Source of the DNA: an uncultured bacterium | Lineage (GTDB): Bacteria; Cyanobacteriota; Cyanobacteriia; Cyanobacteriales; JAABRE01 | Assembly (NCBI GenBank): GCA_964413275.1 | Contig: CAYPSO010000004.1 | Location: 2,520 to 66,519 of the forward strand | Direction of reading: 5' to 3' | Length of the DNA stretch: 64,000 nt | Shown: in pieces, positions 4,808 through 40,165 of the stretch | How positions within the stretch are numbered: the first letter of the stretch is position 1 | Layout: the number at the start of each line of letters is the position of its first letter | Program-made: the position numbers and the translations under genes | Notes under the pieces: generated by a model | What the model saw: only the letters and a program-made list of their open reading frames with translations | The model's database searches: none | Told to the model about the DNA's origin: nothing

Positions 4808-7800
4808 ATGAATAACTTGAATATTCGACAAATACTCCAAAAAAATATTCCCCTAATTATCTTAACTTTATTCGGATTTTTAGGGAATTTCTGGCATATC
4901 CCGATGTTTTTCGGGATTGATTTTCTTTTGGGTAGTATATTTGTCTTATTAATTGTTTATTATTATGGTTTTATTCCAGGTGTAATTGCTAGTATTATTG
5001 CTGCTAGTTATACTTATCAACTTTGGGGACATCCCTATGCAATTATTATTTTTACTTTAGAAACTGTATTTGTCGGTTGGCAATTACGTCGTGGTCAAGA
5101 TAATATTGTATTTTTATCAGCAATTTATTGGTTAATAATAGGTATTCCTTTAATATTATTATTTTATGGTTTAATTTTATCAGTACCTTGGTATGGTACT
5201 ATTTTAATAGTTTTTAAACAATCTGTTAATGGGATATTTAATGGTTTAGTCGCTAATTTAATTATAAATTATTTACCTTTAGATAAGATATTAGGTTACA
5301 AAAGTAATATTAAGCAACTATCTCTACAACAAACAATTTCTAATCTATTAATATCTTTTGTATTTTTGCCAGTTTTAATTATTACTATTTTAAACGGTCA
5401 ACAAATTATTAAAACCATTGAAAATCAGATAACTATTGAGTTAAATTCCGTTACTCAACCCATAGTAGCAAATACCAATTTTTGGTATGAACAACATTTT
5501 TATTCTGTAAGACAATTATCCCAAGTTGCCGCGCAAGCTGATGATATTTCGGTTTTACAAAATAATATAACTTTACTCAAAAACTCTTTACCTGATTTTC
5601 TACAAATGTGTGTTACTGATGTGGATGGTAACATAATTGCTGCTGAACCTAATCTTAAAGAAAAAGGGCAAACAATAATTGGTACTAATATCAGTAATAA
5701 ACTTGAATTTAAGCAAACTAAAGCTACTTTAACAGCTATTGCTACTGATGTTCATGTTGATGATAATTATCCTTTACCCCATGTAGGAATTATGCTTCCT
5801 ATTTTGGTTAATAATCAATTTCAAGGTATTGCCTATGGTTCTTTAAATATAGAACAAATCAAGAAAGTGTTAACTGAAAGTGTTAGAGAAGAATCATTAA
5901 AAATAACATTAATAGATAGAAATAATAAAATTATTACTACCACAGGCACAACTCTTAATAATATGGACGAATTTAAACCAAAACAAAATCGAGAAATTCG
6001 TCCTCTTAATTCTAATATATATCAATCTTTACCTAAAGCAAATGGCACACCTATTATGGTGCGTTGGCATGAATCATTTTATGTTAAAGAGATTGGATTT
6101 TCCTCAACTATTCCTTGGAAAATAATAGTAGAAATTCCGACCAATAGCTATATAGATTATATTCAAGAATTATATGTTAAAAGTTTAGCCTTAATGTTAT
6201 TAATTACGGTATTAGCATTATTTATCGCAATTATTTTAAGCAAAAAATTAGTAAAACCTTTATTAATTTTAACCAATTTGACTAATAATTTACCAGCAAA
6301 ATTAGCAGAAGATAATACTAGCATAGAATTACCTGATAGTACCATTCAAGAAATTGCGACATTAAGTTATAATTTTAAATTAATGGTAGAAGTTTTTAAA
6401 CAACAATTTCACGAAATTAAACAAGTTAATAACAACTTAGAAGATAACATTAATGAAAGAACTAACGCATTATTAAAATTAAATAATGAATTAAGGGTTG
6501 AAATTACAGAAAGAGAATATATTCAGAAACAATTAATAGAAAAAGAAGAAAGATATGATTTAGCAGTTTCTGGCACTAATGATGGAATCTGGGATTGGCA
6601 TTTAAAACTTAATACTGTTTATTATTCTCCTACTTGGATGAGAATTTTAGGTTATAAATATCAATCTTTACCTACTCTAATTTCTAGTTGGTTAAATAAT
6701 ATACATCCTGATGATTTAGAAAAAACACTTACAGATATTAACAATCATATTAAACGAAAAACACAATTGTACGAAAATATTCATCGTGTTAAACATCGAA
6801 ATGGCCATTATATTTGGATTTCTGCTAAAGGAAAATGTATTTACGATGAAGAAGATAAACCCTATCGTTTAGTGGGAACAATTACTGATATTACTGATAA
6901 AAAAATAGCTGAAGAACAACTTAAAAAAGCAAAAGAAGAAGCAGAAACAGCTAATCGTAGTAAAAGTGAATTTTTAGCAACTATGAGTCATGAAATTCGC
7001 ACTCCGATGAATGCAGTTATTGGTATGACGGGGTTACTTTTAGATACACATTTAGATAAACAACAACGAGAGTTTGTCGAAATTATTCGGAATAGTGGCG
7101 ATGCTTTACTGACCATTATTAACGATATTCTTGATTTTTCTAAAATTGAATCTGGCAAATTAGAACTAGAAGAACAACCTTTTAATCTTCGTACTTGTAT
7201 TGAAGAATCTTTAGATTTACTAGCGTCAAAAGCTAGTAGTAAAAACCTTGAATTAGCTTATTTCATGACTCCCAATACTCCAGAAATAGTTATGGGAGAT
7301 GTGACCAGGTTAAGACAAATTTTGGTTAATTTAATTAGTAATGCTGTTAAATTTACCGAAACCGGTGAAGTAGTAATTTCCGTTGACTCAACCATAATTA
7401 ATGATCGGAAAAATAATTTAACAACTTGTTCAATTCAATTTTCTGTGCGTGATACGGGTATTGGTATTCCTCCTCAACGTATGGATAGATTATTTAAACC
7501 CTTTAGTCAAGTTGATGCTTCGACAACTCGTAATTATGGTGGTACTGGTTTAGGTTTAGTTATTAGTCATAGATTAACCACAATGATGGGTGGTCAAATG
7601 TGGGTAGAAAGTGGCGGTTTTTATGGTGGTAATCCACCGGAAAAATGGAATTGTCAACGTTCAAAAGTTGGTTGTACTTTCTTTTTTAATATTATTAGTA
7701 GTCCTGTGTATTCTTCTTGTTTAGTAAATCAGTTTGAATCTAATAATGTATTAGAAGATAAACAAGTATTAATTGTTGATGATAATCAGACTAATCGTCA

Positions 7801-8986
7801 GGTTTTAATTATGCAAACCCAATCTTTTGGCATGATTCCTTTAGCAGTATCTTCTGCCCAAGAAGCTTTAAATATTTTAAAAACAAAAAATACTTTTGAC
7901 TTAGCTATTCTTGATATGCAAATGCCACAAATGGATGGACTCATGTTAGCTAGAGAAATTCGTAATGCTCCATCTGGAAAAAATTTACCTTTAGTTATGC
8001 TAACTTCCATTGGTAATAATGAAATATCTGTAAGAAATTCAGATATTCATTGGGCAGCTTATTTGAATAAACCAATTAAACAGTCTCACCTTCATAATAT
8101 TTTAGTTAATATTTTTACTAAACAACCGATTAATCTTAATAAATCTCAATTATATTCAACAATTTTTGACTCACAAATGGGACAAAACTTACCATTAAAA
8201 ATTTTGTTAGCTGAAGATAATGTTGTTAATCAAAAAGTTGCCATTAATATTTTAAAACGTCTCGGTTATCGTGCTGATGTGGTAGCTAATGGTTTAGAAG
8301 TTTTAGAAGCCATAGCTCGCCAATTTTATGATGTGATTTTGATGGATGTACAAATGCCAGAAATGGATGGTTTAACTGCAACTCGTCAGATTAGGGAAAG
8401 AGAAAAACAATTAAGCCAAAAATCTCCTGTAATTATTGCTATGACAGCTAATGCGATGCAAGGAGATAAAGAAATTTGTTTAGAAGCAGGCATGAATGAT
8501 TATATTAGTAAACCTATCCGCGTTCAAGAATTAATAAATGCTTTATATCAATATGAATCTCATTATAATAGAAACAAAGAAATTATCGAACACAAAGAAG
8601 AAATAATGACTGATTCTAATAGTATTAGCCCTGCTACTTTAGATCAAACAGCTTGGAATGAATTGCTAGAGATAGTATCTGATGGAGATAATGAATTATT
8701 AATTGAATTAATTGATTCCTATTTAGAAGATGCTCCTGAATTAATCAAATCTATTCAAGAAGGTATTGCTAAATCAGAAGCTAGTTTATTACAAAGAGCA
8801 GCCCATACTCTTAAATCCAGTAGTGCTTCTTTAGGTGCTGCTACTCTTTCTGAATTTTGTAAACAATTAGAATTGATGGGCAGTAATGGAGAGATTACCC
8901 AAGCTAAATTAATGGTAAATGATTTATTGCTTGAATATCAAAGAACAGAAAAGGCTTTACGCTTAGAAATCGAGAAACTAAATTAA
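4808..8986 (+). CDS. Hybrid sensor histidine kinase: polytopic N-terminus, periplasmic sensor region, HAMP/coiled coil, PAS, HisKA, HATPase, two receiver domains and Hpt
   Basis: H-box SHEIRTPMN (His728, nt 6989-6991). G-boxes DTGIGIP and GGTGLGL. Receivers with DMQMPQMDG (Asp1036, nt 7913-7915) and DVQMPEMDG (Asp1180, nt 8345-8347). Hpt motif AAHTLKSSSASLGA (His1333, nt 8804-8806). PAS segment DGIWDWHL...YYSPTWMRILGY. Confidence 0.9.
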   Translation: MNNLNIRQILQKNIPLIILTLFGFLGNFWHIPMFFGIDFLLGSIFVLLIVYYYGFIPGVIASIIAASYTYQLWGHPYAIIIFTLETVFVGWQLRRGQDNIVFLSAIYWLIIGIPLILLFYGLILSVPWYGTILIVFKQSVNGIFNGLVANLIINYLPLDKILGYKSNIKQLSLQQTISNLLISFVFLPVLIITILNGQQIIKTIENQITIELNSVTQPIVANTNFWYEQHFYSVRQLSQVAAQADDISVLQNNITLLKNSLPDFLQMCVTDVDGNIIAAEPNLKEKGQTIIGTNISNKLEFKQTKATLTAIATDVHVDDNYPLPHVGIMLPILVNNQFQGIAYGSLNIEQIKKVLTESVREESLKITLIDRNNKIITTTGTTLNNMDEFKPKQNREIRPLNSNIYQSLPKANGTPIMVRWHESFYVKEIGFSSTIPWKIIVEIPTNSYIDYIQELYVKSLALMLLITVLALFIAIILSKKLVKPLLILTNLTNNLPAKLAEDNTSIELPDSTIQEIATLSYNFKLMVEVFKQQFHEIKQVNNNLEDNINERTNALLKLNNELRVEITEREYIQKQLIEKEERYDLAVSGTNDGIWDWHLKLNTVYYSPTWMRILGYKYQSLPTLISSWLNNIHPDDLEKTLTDINNHIKRKTQLYENIHRVKHRNGHYIWISAKGKCIYDEEDKPYRLVGTITDITDKKIAEEQLKKAKEEAETANRSKSEFLATMSHEIRTPMNAVIGMTGLLLDTHLDKQQREFVEIIRNSGDALLTIINDILDFSKIESGKLELEEQPFNLRTCIEESLDLLASKASSKNLELAYFMTPNTPEIVMGDVTRLRQILVNLISNAVKFTETGEVVISVDSTIINDRKNNLTTCSIQFSVRDTGIGIPPQRMDRLFKPFSQVDASTTRNYGGTGLGLVISHRLTTMMGGQMWVESGGFYGGNPPEKWNCQRSKVGCTFFFNIISSPVYSSCLVNQFESNNVLEDKQVLIVDDNQTNRQVLIMQTQSFGMIPLAVSSAQEALNILKTKNTFDLAILDMQMPQMDGLMLAREIRNAPSGKNLPLVMLTSIGNNEISVRNSDIHWAAYLNKPIKQSHLHNILVNIFTKQPINLNKSQLYSTIFDSQMGQNLPLKILLAEDNVVNQKVAINILKRLGYRADVVANGLEVLEAIARQFYDVILMDVQMPEMDGLTATRQIREREKQLSQKSPVIIAMTANAMQGDKEICLEAGMNDYISKPIRVQELINALYQYESHYNRNKEIIEHKEEIMTDSNSISPATLDQTAWNELLEIVSDGDNELLIELIDSYLEDAPELIKSIQEGIAKSEASLLQRAAHTLKSSSASLGAATLSEFCKQLELMGSNGEITQAKLMVNDLLLEYQRTEKALRLEIEKLN

Positions 8987-9313: not shown

Positions 9314-11149
9314 ATGAACTATCTCCCAGTCATTATGAAAGATACTATTGAAATTAATACATTAGTTGACTTGCTCAGTTATAGAGCCACAACTCAGACA
9401 AATAAACACGCTTATAGTTTTTTAATTGACGGTAAAAAAGAAAGTGCTCCTTTAACTTATGGAGAATTACATCATCAAGCAAAAGCAATCGCTGCTTTTC
9501 TGCAACAGCAAAAAGTTAAAGGAGAAAGAGCCTTATTACTCTATCCCCAAGGATTAGAAGTAGTAGCCGCTTTTTGTGCTTGTTTATACGCAGGAGTAAT
9601 CGCAATTCCCGTGCCTCCTCCAGAATCGGGTAGATTAAAGCGCACTTTACCCAGATTGCGCTCCATTGTTAAAGATGCACAGGCATCTATTGTCCTCACT
9701 AATGCCAGTATTTTAGAATTAGTGGCTAATGTTGAGGATGAATTTCCTGAATTTGCCCAAATGCGTTGGATAGATACCGCCGAAGTGGATTTAAGTTTAG
9801 CGGATAAATGGGAAAATCCCCATGTTGATAAGGATACCCTAGCCTATTTACAATATACTTCTGGCTCAACTTCCACTCCTAAAGGCGTAATGTTAAGTCA
9901 CTATAACCTGATGCACCATGCCAGATATTTACAACAAGCCTGTGGTTATGAAGACAAAAGCGTTACCCTAACTTGGATGCCCTATTTTCACGATTATGGC
10001 TTAGTAGAAGGTATTACAGTGCCTTTATATAATGGGCATCCTTGCTATCTCATGTCACCTTTTGCCTTTATTAAACGCCCCATCCAATGGTTGCGGAATA
10101 TTGGTAAATATAAAGTTACCCATTCCCAAGCTCCTAACTTTGCCTACGATTTATGCGTCAGAAAAATTAGCCCTAAACAAATTGCTGAATTAGATTTAAG
10201 TAGCTGGGAAGCCGCCGGCAATGCAGCCGAGCCAATTAACCCCAAAGTATTGTTAGAGTTTGCTGATAAATTTGCCGAAGCAGGGTTTCAATGGACAAGC
10301 TTTGCACCTGCCTATGGATTAGCAGAATATACCCTTCTTGTTTCCAATAAACCCAAAGGTACAAAACCCGTATTTTGTGCTGTAGAAAGTGCCAGTTTAG
10401 AACAAGATAAAATTGTACCAGCAAATCCCGACCAAGAAGAAGGAGTAAGGATTTTACCTAGCTGTGGGCGATTGGTTTGTGATACCCAAGTAGCCATTGT
10501 ACATCCCGATACTCTTACCCGTTGCACTGAGGATGAAGTAGGAGAAATTTGGGTTAAAGATGAAAGTGTAGCCCAAGGATATTGGCAACGTATCGAAGAA
10601 ACAGAAAAAACCTTTCGAGCCTATACCAAAGATACACAAGAAGGGCCATTTTTACGCACAGGAGATTTGGGATTTTTTCGAGAAGGGGAATTATATATTA
10701 ATGGCAGGATTAAAGATTTAATTATTGTCAGAGGTACAAACCACTATCCCCAGGATTTAGAATGGAGCGTACAAAATCTTAACCCTGCTTTACGCCCGGA
10801 TTATGGTGCAGCCTTTTCTATTGAAGTTGAAGGAGAAGAACAAGTAGTTATCGTTCAAGAAATAGAAAGACGCACCGAAAATTTAGATGCAGAAAAAATA
10901 CTTGCAGACATCCGCCAAGAAATATCAGAACAACACGAACTACAATTATATGCGATCGTCTTAGCTAAATCTGGAACAATTCTGAAAACAGCTAGTGGTA
11001 AAATTCAACGTCGTGCTTGTCGTGCCAATTTTTTAGCAGGTAAAATTAATACCATTGCTGACTGGTGCGAAGACATTAAACAAAGCTCTAAATTTAAAAC
11101 TTTAGAAAAAGAAGTCGAAAATTTAGAAAATCGAATTAAAACTCATTAA
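9314..11149 (+). CDS. Fatty acyl-AMP ligase (FAAL; FadD32-like adenylating enzyme)
   Basis: AMP-binding core LQYTSGSTSTPKGVMLSH and AYGLAE, plus FLRTGDLGFFREGELYINGRIKDLIIVRGTNHYPQDLE, the typical FAAL C-terminal core. Immediately followed by ACAD and ACP genes. Start may be 9314 or the Met at 9335. Confidence 0.8.
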   Translation: MNYLPVIMKDTIEINTLVDLLSYRATTQTNKHAYSFLIDGKKESAPLTYGELHHQAKAIAAFLQQQKVKGERALLLYPQGLEVVAAFCACLYAGVIAIPVPPPESGRLKRTLPRLRSIVKDAQASIVLTNASILELVANVEDEFPEFAQMRWIDTAEVDLSLADKWENPHVDKDTLAYLQYTSGSTSTPKGVMLSHYNLMHHARYLQQACGYEDKSVTLTWMPYFHDYGLVEGITVPLYNGHPCYLMSPFAFIKRPIQWLRNIGKYKVTHSQAPNFAYDLCVRKISPKQIAELDLSSWEAAGNAAEPINPKVLLEFADKFAEAGFQWTSFAPAYGLAEYTLLVSNKPKGTKPVFCAVESASLEQDKIVPANPDQEEGVRILPSCGRLVCDTQVAIVHPDTLTRCTEDEVGEIWVKDESVAQGYWQRIEETEKTFRAYTKDTQEGPFLRTGDLGFFREGELYINGRIKDLIIVRGTNHYPQDLEWSVQNLNPALRPDYGAAFSIEVEGEEQVVIVQEIERRTENLDAEKILADIRQEISEQHELQLYAIVLAKSGTILKTASGKIQRRACRANFLAGKINTIADWCEDIKQSSKFKTLEKEVENLENRIKTH

Positions 11150-11151
11150 TG

Positions 11152-11176
11152 GTAGGGTGGGCAATGCCCACCCTAC
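11152..11176. repeat. 25-nt palindromic element GTAGGGTGGGCA-A-TGCCCACCCTAC
   Basis: Perfect 12-bp arms around one central base, starting 3 nt after the FAAL stop codon. Related copies occur at 31425-31446 and, as a half copy, at about 1803-1816. Confidence 0.85.
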
Positions 11177-11206
11177 TTTAAAAAATTCATCATTTTTACT
11201 AAAATC

Positions 11207-13015
11207 ATGACAAAATTAAAACAATATCGGTTAGCCGAAAAATTAGAACAAGATTTAGGAAGTCCAGAAAATCCCGATAACCTATTATCCTATAAACAAG
11301 TAATTGACATCGACGAAACTGAAGAATTTCCCCATAAAGAAATTGAATGGCTTTATAACTGGAAATTACAACATCATTATATTCCTGTTAACTGCGGAGG
11401 CGAATTTACGAGTTTTGAAGAATTTTTAGCTTATGTTAGGGTATTAGCTCGTAGGGATTTAACCACAGGAATTGCTTTTACTACCTTATTTTGGTCTTTT
11501 ATTACTTGGATGGCTGGTACAGAAGAACAAAAACGCAATTTATCCCATTATATTCGAGAAGAACATGGGGCAATGTGCTTAGGTTATTCTGAAAAAGAGC
11601 ATGGTGCAGATTTAGTCGGTGGCGATTTAACTGCTACAAAAGTTGAAGGCGGTTATCTTTTAAATGGGGAAAAATGGCCGATAAACAGAGCTACTATTTC
11701 AGGAGTTTCCTATATTTTAGCCCGTACAGATTCAGAAGGTGGAGCTAGATGCCTATCATTATTTATGGTAGAAAAAAGTAAGATAGATGCCAATAATTAT
11801 TACAATTTACCAAAAATTCTAACCCACGGAATCCGTGCTTCTGATATGAGCGGTATTGGTTTTAAAGATTGTTTTGTACCCGATTCTATGTTAATTGGGG
11901 AAGAAGGACAAGGTTTAGAAATTGCCCTCAAAGGATTCCAAATTACCCGTACTTTATGCGCTGCTTTTTCTCACGGTGCTGCCGATACCGCCCTGAGAAC
12001 TACTTTAAAATTTGCTTTAAATCGTGTAATTTACGAGAAAACCGTTTTTGATATGCCCCAACCTCGTAAAGTTTTGACTGACGCTTTTTTAGATATTTTA
12101 ATTTGCGATTGTGAAAGTATAGGAGCAGCTAGGGGTTTTCATATTGTACCCGAACAATTTAGTGTTTGGGCAGCAGTGGTTAAATATTTTGTTCCCATGC
12201 AATTGGAAAATATGGTTAACAATATTTCTGCTGTTTTAGGCTCACGTTTTTATCTGCGAGAAGAACATGATTTTGGCATATTCCAAAAAGCACTTAGGGA
12301 TAATGCCATTATTAGTGTTTTTGATGGTAGCACGGTAGTTAATTTACACGCTTTAATTCTGCAATTTCGTCAATTAGCTAAATATCGTGCCAGAAGAAAA
12401 CCCAAAATCATGGAGGGTATTCAACAACGTTTAGAAGCTATTTTTAGTTTAGAGCAAGATGTGCCAACCTTTGAGCCGCAGAAATTAGAATTATTTGGTA
12501 GAGGTGCAGATGATGGTTTACAAGGTTTAGAAATTGCCCTGCAGCAACTAGAAGATTTACAAAATACATCAGAAGTAGATAAGGAGGTGTTAGCTCATCT
12601 CACTCGTTTGGGTAATATGGTTTTAGAAGAGTTAAATACTCACGATGAATTAATCGCCCAATCTAAGTTTGAATATGGACATAATCAATCCCCTGAATTA
12701 TTTGAAATGGCCAAGAAATATTGCACCTTGCACGCTGCTGCTTGTTGCTTACATATGTGGCTTTATAATCGTCAAAATTTAGGGGAATTTTTTGCCCAAG
12801 GTGAATGGTTAGTGTTAGCTTTACATCGGCTTTTACGAACTATGAAACCTTTATCTTATAGCATATCTGAAACTTACGAAAACAATTTAACTCAAGAAAT
12901 GGTTAAACTATATCAATTCGAGAAAATGTTTTCGATTGTACCTTTCCAATTAGCCCAACTTAACCCAAAAGAGGATATTAAAAATGACAGTAACCAACTC
13001 CAATTCCAAGTCTAA
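11207..13015 (+). CDS. Acyl-CoA dehydrogenase-fold flavoprotein, probably acting on acyl-ACP, with a long C-terminal extension
   Basis: ACAD-like core (MCLGYSEKEHGADL, LNGEKWPINRA, GEEGQGLEIALKGFQITR). Length is 602 aa against about 380-400 aa for canonical ACADs. The gene sits between the FAAL and ACP genes and overlaps the ACP start by 32 nt. Confidence 0.7.
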   Translation: MTKLKQYRLAEKLEQDLGSPENPDNLLSYKQVIDIDETEEFPHKEIEWLYNWKLQHHYIPVNCGGEFTSFEEFLAYVRVLARRDLTTGIAFTTLFWSFITWMAGTEEQKRNLSHYIREEHGAMCLGYSEKEHGADLVGGDLTATKVEGGYLLNGEKWPINRATISGVSYILARTDSEGGARCLSLFMVEKSKIDANNYYNLPKILTHGIRASDMSGIGFKDCFVPDSMLIGEEGQGLEIALKGFQITRTLCAAFSHGAADTALRTTLKFALNRVIYEKTVFDMPQPRKVLTDAFLDILICDCESIGAARGFHIVPEQFSVWAAVVKYFVPMQLENMVNNISAVLGSRFYLREEHDFGIFQKALRDNAIISVFDGSTVVNLHALILQFRQLAKYRARRKPKIMEGIQQRLEAIFSLEQDVPTFEPQKLELFGRGADDGLQGLEIALQQLEDLQNTSEVDKEVLAHLTRLGNMVLEELNTHDELIAQSKFEYGHNQSPELFEMAKKYCTLHAAACCLHMWLYNRQNLGEFFAQGEWLVLALHRLLRTMKPLSYSISETYENNLTQEMVKLYQFEKMFSIVPFQLAQLNPKEDIKNDSNQLQFQV

Positions 13016-13370
13016 TCAAGAAGTAGAAACAGTACAAAACTGGTTGATAGATAAACTTGCCGAACAACTTTCTTTAGATTCTCAAACTATTAGTATTAGT
13101 GAATCTTTAACCCGTTATGGTTTAGATTCCATTGACGCAGTAACCATGGTTGGTGACTTAGAAGATTGGCTTGATTTAGAGTTACCCTCAACCCTATTTT
13201 GGGATTACCCAACTATCGAAAAATCTTCCCAATATTTAGCCGAAAATTTTGATTTATCTGAGTCTTTAAGCGAGACTGAAACGAGTAGTAAACCAGCAGA
13301 AAAAACACCAGAGCCAGTTGGTGCAGCTTCTAGTAAAGGTGGTTTATTTGGTCGTTTAATGGGTAGATAA
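12984..13370 (+). CDS. Standalone acyl carrier protein with an extended Ser/Thr/Pro-rich C-terminal tail
   Basis: Phosphopantetheine attachment motif YGLDSIDAV (Ser49, nt 13128-13130). An AGAGGA Shine-Dalgarno-like sequence precedes the ATG inside the upstream gene. The tail ends GGLFGRLMGR. Confidence 0.8.
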   Translation: MTVTNSNSKSNQEVETVQNWLIDKLAEQLSLDSQTISISESLTRYGLDSIDAVTMVGDLEDWLDLELPSTLFWDYPTIEKSSQYLAENFDLSESLSETETSSKPAEKTPEPVGAASSKGGLFGRLMGR

Positions 13371-13473
13371 ATAGGATTTTCCTACTTACTTCTGATGGGA
13401 AAAGTTGGTGTTTACCTATTAAGCCAACTCACTCCCTATTTATAATTAAAATTTTAAATAAAAAAATAAAGCC

Positions 13474-14931
13474 TTGAATTACTCAGATTTTTCTTTTTGG
13501 TGGATCTTAATACTATTTTGTATTCCTTTTTTTTCCATTCGTTTTTTAGCAAATCAATTTAATCTTTGGCGAGGCATTTTTGATGGTATTGGTTTGGCAG
13601 CTTTGTCAATGATCCTGTTTTATAATGCTAGTCCTGCTAGTTTTATTATTTTTATATTTGAGATAATTGTTAACTATTTGATGGTGCAGTATATGCTCCG
13701 TCGTCAGGGGGCTGAAGCTAAATTCATCGCCACAATTATTATTATTTTTGATGTAGCTGTTTTAGCTTATTTTAAATATTTGACATTTTTTGTAGAAGAT
13801 ATTGTGGGCTTAGTTTTTTCACTACCTCAAAATTGGCAAAGTAGTTTTCCTATTCCTATTAGTAATAGAATCCCTCCGGGGGTTTCTTTTTATACATTTC
13901 AAATGGTTGCTTTTGTCGTCGATTCTCTTAATTCTCGCAAAAAGAAACCGATTGAATTTCTCGATTATATCAATTTTATTGCCTTTTTCCCTCAAATTGT
14001 GGCAGGGCCAATTGAAAGAAGAATAGATTTATTACCACAAATTAGTAAATTCAAGTTTAAATTTACCGCAGAAAATTTTGATGAGGGTTTTCGTTGGATT
14101 TCTTTAGGGTTATTCATGAAATTTGTTTTGGCTGATAATATTTCTCCCTATATTGAATTAAATGAAAGTGCTAATCCTTGGATAATTTGGTTTTTTGCTT
14201 TCTTATTTACTCTGAAAATTTATTTTGATTTTGCCGGTTATAGTTTTATGGCAATGGGTTTAGCCAGAATGTTAGGAGTTAAACTAACAGTTAATTTTTT
14301 AGCCCCTTATACCTCTCAAAGTATTAACGAATTTTGGCGCAGATGGCATATTACTTTAAGCACCTGGTTTAGAGATTACGTTTTTATTCCTTTAATGGGA
14401 TCGAAAAAACAGTTAGCAGCAACATTTTTATTTATTACTTTTACTTTATCTGGTTTTTGGCATGGTGCAGCTTGGAATTTTATTATTTGGGGTGCATATC
14501 ACGGTGCTTTGTTATTAGTATTACGCTATTTAGGAAGACCATTTCAAAGATTTATCAGTCAGTATTTAAAGAGATCAGAATTTATTTCGTGGGGTTTAAC
14601 TTTTGGTTCGGTTATTCTCGGTTGTTTATTCTTTATGGAAACAAATACTGGGAGATTATTTACTAAGTTGAAAACAATTATTACTCCTTGGGATTATTCT
14701 CTTACTAATTTAGGAGATTTTATTCATTCATATAGTCCTAATGAAGGATGGACTTTAATTTTTACTTTATTATTAGCTGTAATTGTTTTATTATTGGAGT
14801 TTATGGCAGTTTGGCAAAATAAATTTGAATATGAATTATTATTATCTCCTTGGGTATCGAGAAGTTTATTAGGTTTAACTATTTTATTAGCTGCCAATGA
14901 ACCTTCTGAATTTATTTATTTTGCATTTTAA
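13474..14931 (+). CDS. MBOAT-family membrane O-acyltransferase (DltB/AlgI-like)
   Basis: Polytopic protein with FWRRWHITLSTWFRDYVFIPL and the conserved-His motif SGFWHGAAWNF (His330, nt 14461-14463). TTG start in the ORF track. Confidence 0.85.
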   Translation: MNYSDFSFWWILILFCIPFFSIRFLANQFNLWRGIFDGIGLAALSMILFYNASPASFIIFIFEIIVNYLMVQYMLRRQGAEAKFIATIIIIFDVAVLAYFKYLTFFVEDIVGLVFSLPQNWQSSFPIPISNRIPPGVSFYTFQMVAFVVDSLNSRKKKPIEFLDYINFIAFFPQIVAGPIERRIDLLPQISKFKFKFTAENFDEGFRWISLGLFMKFVLADNISPYIELNESANPWIIWFFAFLFTLKIYFDFAGYSFMAMGLARMLGVKLTVNFLAPYTSQSINEFWRRWHITLSTWFRDYVFIPLMGSKKQLAATFLFITFTLSGFWHGAAWNFIIWGAYHGALLLVLRYLGRPFQRFISQYLKRSEFISWGLTFGSVILGCLFFMETNTGRLFTKLKTIITPWDYSLTNLGDFIHSYSPNEGWTLIFTLLLAVIVLLLEFMAVWQNKFEYELLLSPWVSRSLLGLTILLAANEPSEFIYFAF

Positions 14932-15095
14932 AGGTTATGAAAAAGTTAGTTAGTTATTTAAGAAACTTTATTGGAATAAAAATATTACCGAAAAATGTAA
15001 AACTTTCGTTATGCTTTCAGATACCATATATTTAGTTTGAATTAGTAAAATTAGAGTCTTGAGTTAATTATTGTACAGTTTTAATAAAAGTAAGA

Positions 15096-16658
15096 ATGAT
15101 AAATAATAGCTTAAAAAACAATACCTTTATATATTTATTGCTTATTTTAGCACTTGCTACTTTGATGAGAGTTTTTTTACTCGAATCAATTCCTAGTGGT
15201 TTTTCTTGTGATGAAGCTGCCAATGGTTATGAATCTTACTCAATTGCAGAAACTCTACGAGATCGATATGGTAAATTTTTGCCTGCTTTTATTAATCCTT
15301 TAAAAAATGATGCTAAAGAGGCCCTATATTTTTATTTGACAGTTCCGTTTATTAAAATTTTGGGTCTTAATGAGTTTGCGACTAGACTTCCAGCTGCTTT
15401 GCTCGGAGTATTAACGGTTTTAACGGTTTATTTGCTTGCTCAAGAAATTTTCAATAAAAAAGTTGGATTGATTTCTGCTCTACTTTTATCCGTTAGCCCT
15501 TGGCATATACACTTTAACCGCATTGCTTTTAGGCTTAATTTGTTACCCTTATTATTTTGTCTAGGAGTTTTATTTTTCGTCAAAAGCTTTAAGCAACCTA
15601 AATATCTTCCTTTAAGTAGTTTTCTGTTTGCATTGAGTCTATACACTTATAATTCGGCTAGAGTTTTTGTACCACTTTTTTTACTTTGTCTTACAATCAT
15701 TTTTTGGAAACATCTATGGAAAAACAAAAAAACTACAGTTATCTCTTTTGTTCTTTTTTTGTTTATCTTTTTGCCTCTGTTGGATTTTTGGATGTCTCCG
15801 GCAGGAATGGCACGAGCTAGAGGAACTGGTTTAGAAAGTAACTTTTTTGTTATCTTAAAGAACTACTTTTCACATTTTAATCCGAACTTTTTATTTTTCA
15901 ACGGAAGATCAGTAATCACTGAAAATCCCTCTAAAATGGGCGAACTTTATTTCTTTGAAATTATAACAGTTCCTTTAGGGATTCTAAAGTTGATTCGAGA
16001 AAAAGTAAAGGCAAAAATGATTTTACTGCCGTGGCTATTATTATATCCCATACCCGCGACTTTGGTTGGTTCAGCAAGTCCTCAACGCTCAATAATAGGA
16101 GTTCCTTTGTTTGCAATAATTTCAGCTATTGGTATTGCCTATTTAATAGATACTTGGAGTTATAAAAGGCAAACGATAGCCTTAGCTGCTGGACTTATTT
16201 TAATGGGCAATTTGACATTCTTTTCCTATCAATATTTTATCAATTATCCACCTGAAGCAGCAAAGCTATGGAATTATGGACTAAAAGAAGCAATTGACTT
16301 TTCAGAAAAAAGTTCTTATGGTGGTTTTGTGCTGAGTAGTGATACGAATAGTGGTTGTTATGCCATACATGATTTTATCTCTCATATTCCTTTTTATACT
16401 CGATATCCTCCACAAAAATATCAGCAATCACCTATTCCTCCTTGGGTGAAAGGCTCACAGGATAAAGTTTATTCTCTTGGTAAATATCATCTTATGTCTA
16501 TATCAAAACAAGACAATTTAAGGACAGAATACTTATATATTCTTCGTCCAGAGGAAATATCAACATTGGAATCCAAAGGATACAAGTGGAAAGAGATTTA
16601 TACAGTTAAAGATTCTCAAGGTATCGAGTATTTGAAATTAGTTGAAATCTATAGCTAA
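15096..16658 (+). CDS. GT-C fold glycosyltransferase (family 39/83, ArnT/PMT-like)
   Basis: About 12 predicted TM helices. The first-loop acidic motif FSCDEAANGYESYS and the PWHIHF segment are typical of ArnT/PMT_2-type polyprenyl-phosphate-sugar-dependent transferases. Confidence 0.65.
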   Translation: MINNSLKNNTFIYLLLILALATLMRVFLLESIPSGFSCDEAANGYESYSIAETLRDRYGKFLPAFINPLKNDAKEALYFYLTVPFIKILGLNEFATRLPAALLGVLTVLTVYLLAQEIFNKKVGLISALLLSVSPWHIHFNRIAFRLNLLPLLFCLGVLFFVKSFKQPKYLPLSSFLFALSLYTYNSARVFVPLFLLCLTIIFWKHLWKNKKTTVISFVLFLFIFLPLLDFWMSPAGMARARGTGLESNFFVILKNYFSHFNPNFLFFNGRSVITENPSKMGELYFFEIITVPLGILKLIREKVKAKMILLPWLLLYPIPATLVGSASPQRSIIGVPLFAIISAIGIAYLIDTWSYKRQTIALAAGLILMGNLTFFSYQYFINYPPEAAKLWNYGLKEAIDFSEKSSYGGFVLSSDTNSGCYAIHDFISHIPFYTRYPPQKYQQSPIPPWVKGSQDKVYSLGKYHLMSISKQDNLRTEYLYILRPEEISTLESKGYKWKEIYTVKDSQGIEYLKLVEIYS

Positions 16659-16820
16659 ACTTTTATTGTAATCACTAATAGTTTAACGCCATTAAATTAC
16701 AATTAAAAAGTTAAAGCGAGTAAAATGTGTCAATAAATGTTATATTTGGCGATAAAATCTAAATTATTAATAATTTCATTTTTAAACCTAAACTAGGATT
16801 ATCTAAAATAAATTAGATAT

Positions 16821-18455
16821 ATGAAAACAAAAACGATTATTGGCATAACTTTAATGATATTAGCCTTATTATTTGGCTTTGTTACTCGAATTGTTAGTGT
16901 TTTACAATATGTTACTTTTGATATAGGGCCAGATCCAGATCAAATTAGAGATGCTTTTATCGTCATGAAAATGTGGCAAGGAGAATTTCCTAAACTTGGC
17001 CCACCAGCCTATGGACTTGGCCTTGGTGGACATCACATTTTACCTCTTTACTACTACATTTTTTTTCCATTTACTCTTTTAGGAGGGAATCCAGCTTTTC
17101 AAGCATTACCTAATGCTTTGTTTTCTTTTCTATCAATTCCACTGTTAATTTTATTGGTTTATAAACTTTTAGAAGATATTAATTATTCTCAAAGAATTTT
17201 ATTAACTGGATTGGCTGGATTCTGGTATAGTAGCCTTTTTGGAGATATATTTATTAGCAATTTTCAATGGAATCCTAGTTCGATACCTTTTTTCTTTCTT
17301 AGCTTTGTAATTATTTATGATTTACAAATAAAAAATAAGTTTTCTTGGGGAATTCAATGTTGTTTATGGGCTATCAATGGAGTTATTTTTGCAATCCTAC
17401 TTAGCTTGCATAGTTCAACATTATTTGTTATGCCTATTGTTTTTATAATTAGTATATTTTTATATGTATTTAAGATTTTAAAAGAAAGAAAAGAAAATAA
17501 ATTTTTAATCTTACCAATAATAAGTTGTCTATCAGCTTTTTTAGCTTTAACTCCCTATTGGATTGGCGAATTTAGTAGTAAATTTAGTAATACAAAAGCT
17601 ATACTTAAAACTATTAGAGCAGGTTCTAGTTCTTCAGATATTTCATTACCAGCTTATATATGGGTTAAAATTTCTAACCTAGTTATGAACTACTTAAATT
17701 TAGTACGCCAGGCCTATTTTTGGAATTCATCACTATTTTATTTAGTAGTTTCAGCTATTTTCCTCACTATTATTACTTTTTCTGCTATTTCCAAGTTTCG
17801 AGGTAATAAATATATTTGGTCTATCTTAATTTCTAGCCTAGGGGTGTTTCTCCTTGCTGCTGCCAATATTGAAGCAAATAAATCTGTTTTCTACTATAAA
17901 ATAATAATCTTACCTTTGCCCATAATCTTGACAATAGTAACTCTTGCCTACTCCAATTTTTCTGCAAAAATTAGAGTTTTTTTCTATGGATTTACTACTA
18001 TAGTATTAATTTTATCTCTATTTAATAATTTATTTTATGATTATAGCTTTATGCTCGCTAAATATGGAAAAACCAGATTACTTAATACACAAGAAATTAC
18101 CCAAATAATGAGAAAAATACCAGCAAGCTCAACCATTTGCGATCCCAGAATAAGTCGTAAAAGAAAAGTTAGAAATCAATATAATTACATTGATACATAT
18201 GTTGTTAAGAACGATATAAAAACAGTCGATGTTTGTGAAGCGGGCAATTATGTAATACATCCTAAAAGATTTTTACAGATTGAGGGTAATTTTTTAAATA
18301 ATAACAACTATCAAGAAACTTATTTTTTAGAACCTTCATATCAAGGAGATTTGAAATTATGGCCTATTTTAAAAGTTTCAGAAAATGAAAATATTGCAAG
18401 ACCAGCAAAACTCTTTTTAGAGATAGGAACAGCTTATGTTTATCTACTTGAATGA
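16821..18455 (+). CDS. Polytopic membrane protein, probable second GT-C-type glycosyltransferase
   Basis: Many TM helices followed by a soluble C-terminal domain, the same architecture as the preceding gene. An acidic first loop (FDIGPDPDQIRD) is present. No strong motif match, so the assignment rests on architecture and context. Confidence 0.4.
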   Translation: MKTKTIIGITLMILALLFGFVTRIVSVLQYVTFDIGPDPDQIRDAFIVMKMWQGEFPKLGPPAYGLGLGGHHILPLYYYIFFPFTLLGGNPAFQALPNALFSFLSIPLLILLVYKLLEDINYSQRILLTGLAGFWYSSLFGDIFISNFQWNPSSIPFFFLSFVIIYDLQIKNKFSWGIQCCLWAINGVIFAILLSLHSSTLFVMPIVFIISIFLYVFKILKERKENKFLILPIISCLSAFLALTPYWIGEFSSKFSNTKAILKTIRAGSSSSDISLPAYIWVKISNLVMNYLNLVRQAYFWNSSLFYLVVSAIFLTIITFSAISKFRGNKYIWSILISSLGVFLLAAANIEANKSVFYYKIIILPLPIILTIVTLAYSNFSAKIRVFFYGFTTIVLILSLFNNLFYDYSFMLAKYGKTRLLNTQEITQIMRKIPASSTICDPRISRKRKVRNQYNYIDTYVVKNDIKTVDVCEAGNYVIHPKRFLQIEGNFLNNNNYQETYFLEPSYQGDLKLWPILKVSENENIARPAKLFLEIGTAYVYLLE

Positions 18456-18509
18456 TATTTTTAAAATAGATATTTGAATATTATTATTAATTTAAAAAAA
18501 AGCAATTAA

Positions 18510-19481
18510 ATGAATAAAAATCAGACAGTTCTCTCCATTATTATCCCACTTTATAATGAATCTCAAGGAATAGATTATCTTTTTGAGAGACTTTTTAATG
18601 TCTTAAATAATCTAGAAATTTCCCATGAAATTATTTGTATTGATGATGGTAGTAAGGATAATACCTTGGAATTATTAATTAAATATAGTAATGAAAATAC
18701 CAATATTAAGGTTATTAGCTTATCACGTAATTTTGGTAAAGAAATTGCTTTGACGGCAGGACTCGATCGTGCTTGTGGTGCGGCAGTAATACCAATTGAT
18801 GCTGATTTACAAGATCCTCCCGAACTTATAAACGAGATGCTTAACAAATGGAGAGAAGGTTATGAGGTTGTCTATGCTGTAAGGCAATCACGCCAAGGAG
18901 AAAGCTTTCTGAAACGTTTTACCGCATACGCTTTTTATAAAATAATTGGTGTTTTAAGCGGAGTACCCATTCCCTCTAATACAGGTGATTTTCGATTATT
19001 AGATCGCAAAGTTGTTGAAGCTCTTAAACAAATACCCGAACGTTCTAGATTTATGAAAGGTTTATTTGCTTGGGTTGGCTTTAAACAAACTGCTATATTT
19101 TTTCATCGAGAGCCAAGATTTAAAGGTGAAACAAGTTGGAATTATTGGAAACTTTGGAACTTTGCCATTGATGGGATCACATCATTTAGCTTACTACCCT
19201 TAAAGGTTTGGACTTATATTGGTTTTTTGGTCTCTTTCTTTTCATTACTATATGCTAGTTTCTTACTAATAAGAACTTTGATTTTTGGTGTAGATGTTCC
19301 GGGTTATGCATCCGTGATGGTTTCTGTTTTATTTTTAGGAGGTATTCAGCTATTAACTCTAGGTATTTTTGGAGAATACTTAGGTCGTGTCTATGAGGAA
19401 GTAAAACAACGTCCGCTCTACCTAGTTCGAGAATTATATGGATTTAATTCTGAAAATAAAAAAGAGAAATTAGTTAAATAA
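18510..19481 (+). CDS. GT2 polyprenyl-phosphate glycosyltransferase (GtrB/ArnC/DPM1-like)
   Basis: LSIIIPLYNE, DDGSKDNT and PIDADLQDPPELI (DXD region), plus two C-terminal TM helices as in GtrB/ArnC. Confidence 0.85.
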   Translation: MNKNQTVLSIIIPLYNESQGIDYLFERLFNVLNNLEISHEIICIDDGSKDNTLELLIKYSNENTNIKVISLSRNFGKEIALTAGLDRACGAAVIPIDADLQDPPELINEMLNKWREGYEVVYAVRQSRQGESFLKRFTAYAFYKIIGVLSGVPIPSNTGDFRLLDRKVVEALKQIPERSRFMKGLFAWVGFKQTAIFFHREPRFKGETSWNYWKLWNFAIDGITSFSLLPLKVWTYIGFLVSFFSLLYASFLLIRTLIFGVDVPGYASVMVSVLFLGGIQLLTLGIFGEYLGRVYEEVKQRPLYLVRELYGFNSENKKEKLVK

Positions 19482-19530
19482 TATAGATATATATGTACTT
19501 GTAGTTTGATAAGGTTTAAGGAAAAAAGTC

Positions 19531-20541
19531 ATGAAATATTCACGTTTATTAACATGGGCATTATTTGCAGCAGGCTTCTGGTCAGCCGGATTTATATACA
19601 ATGTTTATATTGGCGGCTATCCTAGTTGGCTGCGAGCTATGTATGGATTAAAAATAACACTAGCTCAAGAAATCGAGCAACCCAAAATTATTATTGCAGG
19701 AGGTTCAGGGGTTCAGTACACTATTAACTCCGATGTCATGGAAGAGGCTTTAGGTATGCCGGTGATGAACTTGGGAACTAACGGAGGAATTGGTTTAAAT
19801 GTTCTACTACCAAGTATTATAGATCAAGTAAATCCGGGGGATATTATACTACTAATTCCTGAGTATCCTTTTCTATTAGATGATGACGGACTAGATCGAC
19901 TCTCAGCAACCTTTGGTTTAGTGATTGGCCGGCCTGGGCTTGGAGGTGTACCTCCCAAGGATTTGGCTCAAAATACCCTGGCTTTAGGTATTCCTTCTTT
20001 ACAAGCACTGGTAAAAACAGGACAAGATTTTGTGCAGGAGGGACGAGTTGATTACTATGGCGATCCCTTAACGAAAAGGGGAGATGCTACTATCGAACTA
20101 ACTCGTCAGGGAAAATGGTGGAAATTATCTATTGACTCTCCGGTTAGCAAACACACTATAGAGAGCCTGCATCAATTTAAAAAGGATGTAGAACTACGTG
20201 GGGGAACTTTAGTATTATCTTTGCCTGTAATTTATGGCAAAAACGACGAAAAAAACCTTAATAATATTCAGAAAACTGCTGATGCCTTATCTGAAGTTGC
20301 TCCTACCCTCTACAATCCTAAAACCCTCAACATTGAAAGCAACTCTGATTTATTTGCAGATACCCACTACCATCTCAAAAAATCTGCTAGGATAATGCGA
20401 TCGCAGCAACTTGCAGAGCAACTTCGAGAAAAAATACCTCAATTTTCATCGATTTCTCAGAAAAATAGTGAATACACAATAGACTTCTTGAATTCGTCAG
20501 GCAATAGGGAACAGGCAAAAGGCAACAGTCTAGGAAATTGA
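19531..20541 (+). CDS. N-terminally membrane-anchored protein; candidate SGNH/DltD-like acyl-transfer partner of the MBOAT
   Basis: One N-terminal TM helix (LTWALFAAGFWSAGFIYNVYI), then IIIAGGSGVQY (Ser59) and the near-C-terminal FADTHYHL (Asp277/His279/His281). The order resembles SGNH blocks I and V. The last about 14 codons are encoded by a heptamer repeat. Assignment is inferential. Confidence 0.35.
   Translation: MKYSRLLTWALFAAGFWSAGFIYNVYIGGYPSWLRAMYGLKITLAQEIEQPKIIIAGGSGVQYTINSDVMEEALGMPVMNLGTNGGIGLNVLLPSIIDQVNPGDIILLIPEYPFLLDDDGLDRLSATFGLVIGRPGLGGVPPKDLAQNTLALGIPSLQALVKTGQDFVQEGRVDYYGDPLTKRGDATIELTRQGKWWKLSIDSPVSKHTIESLHQFKKDVELRGGTLVLSLPVIYGKNDEKNLNNIQKTADALSEVAPTLYNPKTLNIESNSDLFADTHYHLKKSARIMRSQQLAEQLREKIPQFSSISQKNSEYTIDFLNSSGNREQAKGNSLGN
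20499..20526. repeat. Degenerate heptanucleotide repeat (AGGCAAN) inside the 3' end of a CDS
   Basis: aggcaat agggaac aggcaaa aggcaac, which translates as the C-terminal ...GNREQAKGN... of ORF 19531-20541. Confidence 0.7.
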
Positions 20542-40040: not shown

Positions 40041-40165
40041 TTTTTATGCCTCAGTTTTTATTTTAAAAAAGTTTTTTATTTTAGTTACCTTCATCTATAA
40101 CTCATTTTGCTAATATATAGCTTTAATTTCTGATAATTTTAACAATTTCTTCAATTATCTTGTAC

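Follow-up and report, generated by a model that had tools for sequence, protein, structure and literature searches.

Gene organization of the locus

We analyzed a 64,000-nucleotide stretch of DNA (hereafter the window) from an uncultured cyanobacterium (Cyanobacteriales; JAABRE01), taken from the forward strand of assembly GCA_964413275.1 (contig CAYPSO010000004.1, positions 2,520 to 66,519). Between positions 9314 and 20541 the window holds eight plus-strand open reading frames (ORFs), the conserved core of which may encode a system that moves acyl groups across the membrane onto an extracytoplasmic acceptor. The first four genes encode a fatty acyl-AMP ligase (FAAL; 9314-11149, 611 amino acids (aa), or 604 aa from the alternative start at 9335 that gene callers choose), a flavoprotein of the acyl-CoA dehydrogenase (ACAD) fold that is presumed to be an acyl-ACP dehydrogenase (11207-13015, 602 aa including a C-terminal extension of ~200 aa), a stand-alone acyl carrier protein (ACP) of the polyketide synthase (PKS) type (12984-13370, 128 aa) and a membrane-bound O-acyltransferase (MBOAT; 13474-14931, 485 aa). 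Three membrane-associated genes follow, namely a PMT_2/ArnT-like glycosyltransferase of the GT-C type (15096-16658, 520 aa), a polytopic membrane protein of no described family (16821-18455, 544 aa), both of them lineage-specific insertions, and a GT2 glycosyltransferase of the GtrB/ArnC/PgfS type (18510-19481, 323 aa). The last gene (19531-20541, 336 aa) encodes a protein, here termed P8, with a predicted N-terminal anchoring helix, which we consider below as a putative SGNH-like partner of the MBOAT.

The intergenic gaps are, in order, 57, -32 (the overlap of the ACAD and ACP genes), 103, 164, 162, 54 and 49 nt, and the gene order is identical in three independent assemblies from two stromatolite metagenome runs, the contig itself being of stromatolite origin. 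A terminator scan revealed no terminator-like hairpin inside any plus-strand intergenic gap; promoter-like and terminator-like sites across the locus were no commoner than in shuffled sequence, and Rfam gave no matches in the 8-22 kb region of the window. An earlier note on this DNA, made from the letters alone, had described eight co-oriented genes with gaps of at most 164 nt and one 32-nt overlap. Its coordinates and gaps were reproduced in full, and every motif that it quoted is present, Ser49 of the ACP included. The identities that it proposed for the FAAL, the ACAD-fold protein, the stand-alone ACP, the MBOAT, the ArnT/PMT-like GT-C, the GtrB/ArnC-like GT2 and an anchored SGNH-like last gene agree with the profile, structural and motif evidence given in the following sections.

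Enzymes of the putative acyl donor module

The fold of the FAAL is adenylate-forming, and both its N-terminal and its C-terminal domain are of the FAAL type; it matches the Pfam AMP-binding family with 224 bits and carries an AMP-dom_DIP2-like C-terminal domain. FAAL models were its best matches in NCBIfam (445-512 bits, all under their equivalog cut-offs), and it lies close to characterized FAALs: it aligned with the FAAL structure 7R7E over residues 16-584 without large gaps (560 bits), with structure 3KXW at 422 bits and with FadD32 at 332 bits. Its score against the DltA model PRK04813 was 104 bits, far from the cut-off of 476 that marks a DltA-type D-alanine ligase.

The second protein contains the middle and C-terminal ACAD domains of Pfam (Acyl-CoA_dh_M and Acyl-CoA_dh_1) and aligned across the full catalytic core with butyryl-CoA dehydrogenase 5OL2 (92 bits) and with medium-chain acyl-CoA dehydrogenase (MCAD; 76 bits). 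The residue aligned with Glu376, the catalytic base of MCAD, is not a glutamate: the position is taken by Asp373 (12323-12325, in an FDGS motif), which is invariant in 20 orthologues. An aspartate base at this position occurs in nitroalkane oxidase, which makes activity with Asp373 plausible. The C-terminal extension of ~200 aa is conserved, as in enzymes resembling very-long-chain acyl-CoA dehydrogenase (VLCAD), and in orthologues, too, the ACAD and ACP genes overlap by 32 nt.

The ACP matched the Pfam PP-binding family (55 bits), its best matches in the Protein Data Bank (PDB) being the ACPs 2N98 and 2AFD (Asl1650). The phosphopantetheine site, Ser49 (13128-13130, plus strand), lies in a DSI motif, and the LTRYGLDSIDAVT core is invariant among orthologues. 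In the window the protein closes with an acidic tail that ends in GGLFGRLMGR (aa 118-128, 13335-13367). Most orthologues (loci L004-L007 and L095-L151) have a ~40-aa acidic low-complexity linker and then a conserved C-terminal peptide, KGWGG[LF][FW]x[RK], and the tail is wholly absent in one sub-clade (L105-L114, L159 and L165). The peptide is possibly a membrane element or one for docking to the MBOAT. Triads of FAAL, ACP and ACAD that desaturate a tethered fatty acid before its transfer are known from mycobactin synthesis (MbtM, MbtL and MbtN) and from the synthesis of lipopeptide tails.

The acyltransferase and its predicted SGNH-like partner

The MBOAT matched Pfam PF03062 with 99 bits. 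Against the NCBIfam DltB model TIGR04091 it scored 188 bits, below the equivalog cut-off of 375, and against the DltB structure 6BUG 91 bits, in the RRWH...FWHG core, compared with 250-420 bits to AlgI-like relatives. The conserved His330 (14461-14463), in the FWHG motif that aligns with GFWHG of DltB 6BUG, is invariant in 21 related sequences. The protein ends in the hexapeptide FIYFAF (aa 480-485, 14911-14928, with Tyr482), which from its sequence reads as an FXYXXF acyl shuttle motif, and F[IL/V]YFxF forms the C-terminal end of all 34 distinct full-length related MBOATs examined. This motif and the role of an acyl-tyrosine intermediate have been defined (PMC12148441); experiments on PatA/PatB have shown that the acyl group reaches the SGNH partner by way of the motif, and in the Dlt system it resides on the DltX microprotein and not on the MBOAT (PMC12148441). 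No small ORF ending in FxYxxF, as expected of a DltX-like microprotein, was found near the locus. A 56-aa ORF ending in FIYNSFC (39943-40110, plus strand) was considered and set aside, being 25 kb away and overlapping a minus-strand gene (39447-40040), so that its ending is probably due to chance. Because FIYFAF is fused to the enzyme, no DltX-like ORF lies nearby and the score against the DltB model falls short of its cut-off, the MBOAT is best assigned to the PatA/AlgI type, and the acceptor side of the system would be an MBOAT-SGNH pair and not a DltB/DltX/DltD set.

Sequence and profile searches with P8 gave no match in Pfam, NCBIfam or the PDB. Its alignment-based AlphaFold model is confident (predicted local distance difference test (pLDDT) 86.5, predicted template modelling score 0.82), and in it residues 2-27 form an N-terminal helix. 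The top PDB matches of this model in Foldseek were YxiM, rhamnogalacturonan acetylesterase, TesA and the C-terminal domain of the O-acetyltransferase OatA, and the SGNH matches had a probability of 1.00 with modest template modelling scores of 0.35-0.5. GGSG (with Ser59), Asn80 and FADTHxHL are invariant in 30 orthologues. When P8 was aligned with the ~300-aa proteins encoded downstream of MBOAT genes in other phyla, a common core of GGS...N...D-x3-H-[LM] emerged, with GGS and D-x3-H present in most, and a putative triad of the conserved residues Ser59 (19705-19707), Asp277 (20359-20361) and His281 (20371-20373, all plus strand) is therefore indicated. On the strength of the model, P8 is taken to be the membrane-anchored, SGNH-like partner of the MBOAT. 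Its gene stands directly downstream of the MBOAT gene in most orthologous loci, and 4.6 kb downstream of it in the window, after the inserted glycosyltransferase genes.

The homologues of P8 are all cyanobacterial and labelled as hypothetical proteins. Proteins of ~300-480 aa with weak homology to P8 (25-146 bits) are encoded after numerous MBOAT genes of Bacteroidota, Verrucomicrobiota and Clostridia (loci L008, L024, L027, L034, L047, L051, L055, L057, L064, L086-L088 and L160). Ten such P8-like partner proteins scanned against Pfam, including that of Aquimarina algicola (locus L015, see below), gave no match, and the family seems not to have been curated. Some of the clostridial proteins have a C-terminal region with sub-threshold LRR_5 matches. 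Tandem duplicate P8 genes were seen in two metagenome contigs (L092 5098-7074 and L093 124-2219).

Conservation of the operon in cyanobacteria

We collected loci anchored on P8 or on the MBOAT from metagenomes (77 loci), cyanobacterial genomes (2, among the matches listed) and targeted look-ups (7), and annotated them by searches with the proteins of the window. MBOAT orthologues with 67-80% identity occur in many cyanobacterial families, the named sources being Rippkaea, Crocosphaera, Hydrococcus, Coleofasciculus, Moorena and Okeania as well as Aphanothece sacrum, Chroococcus, Gloeocapsa, Phormidesmis, Leptolyngbya and Romeria; the identity of P8 among cyanobacterial orthologues is 45-79%. 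The canonical gene order is FAAL-ACAD-ACP-MBOAT-P8, after which there usually come a ~410-aa Pyr_redox_2 (NDH-2/SQR-like) flavoprotein and then a ~620-aa polytopic protein, annotated as hypothetical, that has a central DCC1-like thiol-oxidoreductase domain and weak similarity to LMF1 (DCC1L). These two additional genes were seen, for example, at L095 8270-11521 and at L005 1-807 and 10998-12860, and the 64-kb window contains no orthologue of either.

When the loci were grouped by P8 at 90% identity, there were 20 groups in which the sequence reached ~6 kb or further upstream of P8. The quartet FAAL-ACAD-ACP-MBOAT lies upstream of P8 on the same strand in 15 of these, and ACAD-ACP-MBOAT without the FAAL in one; one further group has MBOAT-P8-flavoprotein only, and in the remaining three P8 and DCC1L are divergent from genes for a DegT aminotransferase, a 152-aa protein and an LA_3751/2-family glycosyltransferase. 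The core order is also present in L168 and L169, and in L167 without the FAAL. Conservation of the gene order in other cyanobacteria therefore indicates that the arrangement is not due to chance. In Rippkaea PCC 8801 P8 has the divergent arrangement, ACAD-ACP-MBOAT-flavoprotein lies ~45 kb away and the FAAL is found elsewhere. The ACP gene adjoins the MBOAT gene in nearly all cyanobacterial loci examined, and since the two have stayed together even in Rippkaea PCC 8801, where FAAL and P8 have moved, theirs is the most persistent adjacency of the operon. The operon was found in Chroococcales, Pleurocapsales, Oscillatoriales and Leptolyngbya-like groups; it is thus widespread in cyanobacteria and wholly unannotated.

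Glycosyltransferase insertion and glycan-related neighbours

The 520-aa GT-C protein matched Pfam PMT_2 with 57 bits (cut-off 26) and has at least seven hydrophobic segments and an acidic first loop (CDEAANGYE). Of the loci compared, the window and Cyanobacterium stanieri PCC 7202 alone have a PMT_2 gene between MBOAT and P8, with homologues downstream of the operon in L159 and L147. The 544-aa protein gave no match in Pfam, NCBIfam or the PDB, a PDB profile search included. It has at least nine hydrophobic segments, a hydrophilic C-terminus of ~140 aa and an acidic first loop (FDIGPDPDQ), and a comparison with its PMT_2 neighbour in hhalign aligned equivalent positions weakly (E=0.0046, probability 7.5%); its topology and first loop are suggestive of a GT-C-like protein. 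A single-sequence AlphaFold2 model of it was unusable (pLDDT 41). The GT2 matched PF00535 (Glycos_transf_2, 110 bits) and has a DxD motif (DAD, aa 97-99) and overlapping C-terminal hydrophobic segments (aa 236-287), read as the usual two C-terminal helices. Its similarity to PgfS (289 bits over positions 8-308 of 308; cut-off 500) and ArnC (181 bits; cut-off 529) is below the equivalog level.

What stands between MBOAT and P8 varies within the P8 sub-clade of the window: nothing in L168 and L169, the 544-aa gene in L167, PMT_2 and the 544-aa gene in C. stanieri PCC 7202, and PMT_2, the 544-aa gene and the GT2 in the window, the GT2 being absent from this position in every other locus examined. 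The glycosyltransferase genes are thus a recent addition, placed between MBOAT and P8 in this sub-clade only, and lie outside the conserved system. The low G+C content of these genes (0.30) was considered as a sign of foreign origin and set aside, because hydrophobic membrane proteins rich in Phe, Ile and Leu are expected to be encoded by low-G+C genes anyway. Within the window, the GT2 and the two polytopic GT-C-like proteins probably build or decorate the acceptor.

Other glycan genes adjoin the operon in at least five different arrangements. A polysaccharide-pyruvyl-transferase-like gene follows DCC1L, and L159 has two PMT_2 genes together with a protein of the AZOBR_p60025 family ('cell surface glycopolymer formation'). 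In Rippkaea a DegT aminotransferase, an LA_3751/2-family glycosyltransferase and a WecA-like gene stand beside P8, and the DegT aminotransferase and the LA_3751/2 glycosyltransferase recur in Crocosphaera-type loci. A second MBOAT also belongs to this series, in L129 with DUF1574, GDSL and TolC-like genes and in L168 (see below). Because glycan genes recur in independent arrangements, the genomic context favours a glycan as the acceptor.

Origin of the MBOAT and P8 pair

An exhaustive search of cluster representatives yielded a sister group of MBOATs with full-length matches at 36-44% identity. In the four sister members whose contexts were examined, on Verrucomicrobiota-like and unassigned metagenomic contigs, the MBOAT and a P8-like partner are found in Wzx/Wzy/GT4/WecG polysaccharide clusters or similar surroundings. 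Among the matches listed, none of the 78 non-cyanobacterial GTDB-genome loci has homologues of the FAAL, ACAD or ACP beside the MBOAT, and one, from Aquimarina algicola, has a DltA-like ligase and a carrier protein. The sister pairs being carrier-less and set in polysaccharide clusters, the likeness to Dlt would therefore reflect convergence on its logic and not descent from it; the conserved linkage of the ACP, in turn, argues that the cyanobacterial clade gained a carrier-protein donor independently. By these comparisons, the cyanobacterial system looks like a carrier-less glycan O-acyltransferase pair that gained a FAAL-ACAD-ACP module.

Compared with their sister group, the cyanobacterial MBOATs have the invariant substitutions G308M, W315A, V322T, G333A, W384C, Y388M and Y304F, of which W315A, W384C and Y388M replace bulky residues by small ones. 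The clade has also gained three lysines (K157, K158 and K312) and two insertions (within aa 116-128 and 356-363) that contain the invariant W121 and P356-F357. The substitutions lie near the catalytic motifs, and the changes as a whole would suit a bigger acyl group that is donated by an acidic protein.

These results bear on the earlier note in different ways. Its view of the locus as a rewired Dlt module is contradicted by the score below the DltB cut-off, the MBOAT's own tyrosine shuttle, the lack of a DltX nearby and the carrier-less nature of the nearest non-cyanobacterial relatives, and as an evolutionary statement it was dropped, since those relatives and the fused shuttle motif indicate a PatA/AlgI-type ancestor. 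Grouping of the MBOAT with AlgI/PatA-type enzymes that do not bind carriers had been named there as evidence that would refute its reading; the carrier-less nearest relatives outside the cyanobacteria are a part of such evidence, and the linkage to the ACP is conserved. The logic of ligase, carrier, MBOAT and anchored SGNH-like protein holds by gene identities and conserved order, and the FAAL-ACAD-ACP-MBOAT quartet, for which conservation in related genomes had been asked, keeps its order in the 15 groups mentioned above. Of the eight-gene composition, the acyl module and P8 form the conserved core, whereas the glycosyltransferase genes are extra and two canonical genes are missing from the window. 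The GT2/GT-C module does not belong to the conserved system, its insertion between MBOAT and P8 being limited to the sub-clade of the window and that of the GT2 to the window itself.

Proposed pathway and alternative explanations

In the pathway that we propose, the FAAL would adenylate a free long-chain fatty acid and load it onto the phosphopantetheine of ACP Ser49, and the VLCAD-like ACAD, with Asp373 as its base, would oxidize the tethered chain, most simply to a 2-enoyl-ACP with a double bond in the chain. The acyl-ACP would dock at the cytoplasmic face of the MBOAT, where His330 would catalyze transfer to Tyr482 of FIYFAF, and on the periplasmic side Ser59 of P8 would receive the acyl group from this shuttle. 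P8 would then esterify a hydroxyl group on an acceptor outside the cytoplasm, for which a polysaccharide of the cell surface or an exo-polysaccharide is the most probable candidate. We give a probability of roughly 0.55 to the reading that the operon encodes an MBOAT-SGNH transmembrane acylation system whose donor comes from the dedicated FAAL, ACAD and ACP and not from acyl-CoA, and whose acceptor is most probably a surface or exo-polysaccharide. A narrower version, in which a PatA/AlgI-type MBOAT was recruited to take an ACAD-modified long-chain acyl group from the ACP and the SGNH-like partner lipidates a surface or extracellular glycan, is offered more tentatively, as somewhat short of an even chance.

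Several observations weigh against a carrier-fed transfer of a fatty acyl group to a glycan. PatA uses acetyl-CoA (PMC12148441), and the carrier-less nearest relatives of the MBOAT in the window would by analogy do the same; the contexts of the four sister MBOATs contained no FAAL, ACAD or ACP, and the RRWH arginines seen in PatA/AlgI-type enzymes are retained in the MBOAT of the window. We know of no precedent in bacteria for the passage of a long acyl chain through a PatA-type MBOAT. Because an aspartate replaces the usual glutamate base, the reaction of the ACAD is uncertain. The association with glycosyltransferases is confined to a minority of loci, and the conserved NDH-2-like and DCC1/LMF1-like genes, absent from the window, are not explained by the model. 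Finally, 16 near-identical metagenome loci of one lineage (L121, L126, L128, L130-L132, L134, L136-L142, L144 and L149, from the VYK*/VYL* and Ga0315900 metagenomes) have MBOAT-P8-flavoprotein and no FAAL, ACAD or ACP within 8 kb.

Some of these points would be met if the MBOAT and P8 were an ordinary polysaccharide O-acetyltransferase that draws on acetyl-CoA, and the FAAL, ACAD and ACP a separate module feeding another enzyme, kept adjacent through co-regulation of envelope functions. The carrier-less state of the closest non-cyanobacterial relatives, the retention of RRWH together with the fused tyrosine shuttle, and the lineage in which MBOAT and P8 occur without donor genes nearby all speak for such a division, as does the fact that cyanobacterial FAAL-ACP pairs usually feed PKS, nonribosomal peptide synthetase (NRPS) or olefin pathways. 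In the loci examined, however, FAAL-ACAD-ACP has no conserved neighbour among PKSs, NRPSs, condensation enzymes or other acyltransferases, the ACP-MBOAT adjacency, which is present in nearly all and argues against an acetyl-CoA donor, outlasts the rearrangements that part FAAL and P8, and the many invariant clade-specific changes of the MBOAT cluster near its catalytic motifs; in addition, a second generic MBOAT with its own partner, present in several loci, could supply acetylation. We therefore regard two separate functions as unlikely. That the eight genes are chance neighbours from common families with no functional relation is far less probable again: promoter-like and terminator-like sites are not enriched over shuffled sequence, as such a view would have it, but the core order is kept across many families at the MBOAT and P8 identities given above, the ACAD/ACP overlap is conserved and the plus-strand gaps are free of terminator-like hairpins.

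A different question is whether the route from acyl-ACP through the MBOAT to P8 holds and the acceptor is something other than a polymeric glycan. Candidates are the head group of a membrane lipid, a sugar linked to polyprenyl phosphate, lipid A or the core of lipopolysaccharide, and a periplasmic or secreted protein, which last would make the system a bacterial counterpart of the enzymes Porcupine, HHAT and GOAT that lipidate proteins. In eukaryotes, MBOATs transfer long acyl chains to lipids and to proteins. The core operon is without a glycosyltransferase in most lineages, and its conserved NDH-2/SQR-like and DCC1/LMF1-like thiol-redox genes are atypical of polysaccharide loci. Against this, the known bacterial FXYXXF MBOAT-SGNH pairs all acylate glycopolymers, namely peptidoglycan, alginate, cellulose, teichoic acids and secondary cell wall polysaccharides (PMC12148441), the sister pairs lie in Wzx/Wzy clusters, and glycan genes stand beside the operon in their several arrangements. 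An acceptor of another kind is thus also unlikely, if slightly less so than an acetyl-CoA-fed enzyme beside an unrelated donor module, and transfer to a surface or exo-polysaccharide is the reading that we carry into the comparisons below.

Comparison with known systems

Literature searches found no published description of the operon and no characterized system of such composition, as the earlier note had surmised. In the current model, the Dlt system is carrier-fed, transfers D-alanine and has its shuttle on DltX, and the other MBOAT-SGNH systems are fed by acyl-CoA, transfer acetyl groups and have a fused shuttle (PMC12148441). Like PatA/PatB, AlgI/AlgJ/AlgX and WssH/WssI (PMC12148441), the operon combines an MBOAT that has a catalytic histidine and a fused C-terminal FXYXXF with a separate, N-terminally anchored SGNH partner that has Ser, His and Asp, here usually encoded just downstream. 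Unlike these systems, which have no carrier and use acetyl-CoA (as shown for PatA), it has a FAAL, an ACAD and an ACP immediately upstream, and at the sequence level P8 differs from the partner families described, DltD, AlgX/AlgJ, DHHW and DUF1574. With Dlt it has in common the logic of adenylating enzyme, carrier, MBOAT and anchored SGNH-like protein, but it has a FAAL in place of the D-alanine ligase, the shuttle on the MBOAT instead of DltX, and an added ACAD; moreover, Dlt acts on teichoic acids, whereas the host here is a Gram-negative-type cyanobacterium without them. The resemblance to Dlt thus appears convergent, the lineage being derived, as far as sequence relationships indicate, from carrier-less MBOAT pairs.

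The donor side recalls the FAAL, ACP and ACAD triads of the mycobactin mbt-2 cluster (the FAAL MbtM, the ACP MbtL and the dehydrogenase MbtN, with the acyltransferase MbtK) and of friulimicin (LipA, LipB and LipD), in which the tethered acyl chain is desaturated and given to a dedicated acyltransferase. The sequence relation to the mycobactin enzymes is weak (18.5 bits to the MbtN model and 183 bits to the MbtM model), and the acyltransferase is in those systems a cytoplasmic GNAT or a condensation domain acting on a peptide, and here a transmembrane MBOAT-SGNH pair. In the three-component glycosylation systems GtrA/GtrB/Gtr(type), ArnC/ArnT and PgfS/PgfM1/PgfM2, a GT2 makes a polyprenyl-phosphate sugar that a GT-C enzyme uses on the outside. 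The inserted genes resemble these in having a GT2 with C-terminal transmembrane helices and two polytopic proteins, one of the GT-C type and one putatively so, and differ in the lack of equivalog-level matches and of a flippase gene and in their position inside an acylation operon.

A polysaccharide cluster of the Bacteroidota member Aquimarina algicola (L015 1033-5160, NZ_VFWZ01000001.1), with EpsG, GT2 and GT4 genes, includes a cassette in which a DltA-like ligase and a carrier of 81 aa are encoded together with an MBOAT and its partner of 307 aa. It matches the operon in its succession of ligase, carrier, MBOAT and partner, and departs from it in lacking an ACAD and in its 494-aa ligase, which is DltA-like and scores 34 bits to the FAAL. 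This cassette, which appears to be uncharacterized, shows that carrier-fed MBOAT cassettes for glycans exist outside Dlt and the Firmicutes. A second MBOAT with a GDSL-like partner follows it.

If our reading is correct, the operon is a hybrid of a carrier-fed donor, a fused shuttle and a fatty acyl cargo, which would mean that the type of donor and the architecture of the shuttle change independently of each other in evolution, and that lipids can travel on the acyl-tyrosine relay. It would represent the first transfer of a fatty acid by a bacterial MBOAT-SGNH system, and the second carrier-fed system after Dlt, of independent origin. Cyanobacterial exopolymers that are hydrophobic and bear fatty acids would also gain a genetic explanation. 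Lipid groups on a surface glycan could influence hydrophobicity of the cell, flocculation, the formation of mats and stromatolites, and desiccation tolerance, and the system offers a possible route to engineered amphiphilic polysaccharides.

Genes flanking the operon

Directly upstream of the FAAL, the window encodes a 1392-aa hybrid histidine kinase with dCache, PAS, HisKA, two REC and Hpt domains (4808-8986, plus strand), and a fatty-acid desaturase gene on the plus strand starts at ~24411, about 4 kb downstream of P8. Neither adjoins the operon in the other loci for which flanking genes were listed. One member of the 16-locus lineage described above, L126, has an epimerase, an FkbM-type methyltransferase and PPK2 as neighbours. 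A second, generic MBOAT (~205-220 bits) lies after the operon in L129 (region 13907-20440), L168 (13903-16644) and L007 (15792-17354); in L129 its neighbours are two genes for DUF1574 proteins, one for a GDSL lipase-like protein and one for a TolC-like outer membrane efflux protein (OEP), and a second FAAL gene is located upstream.

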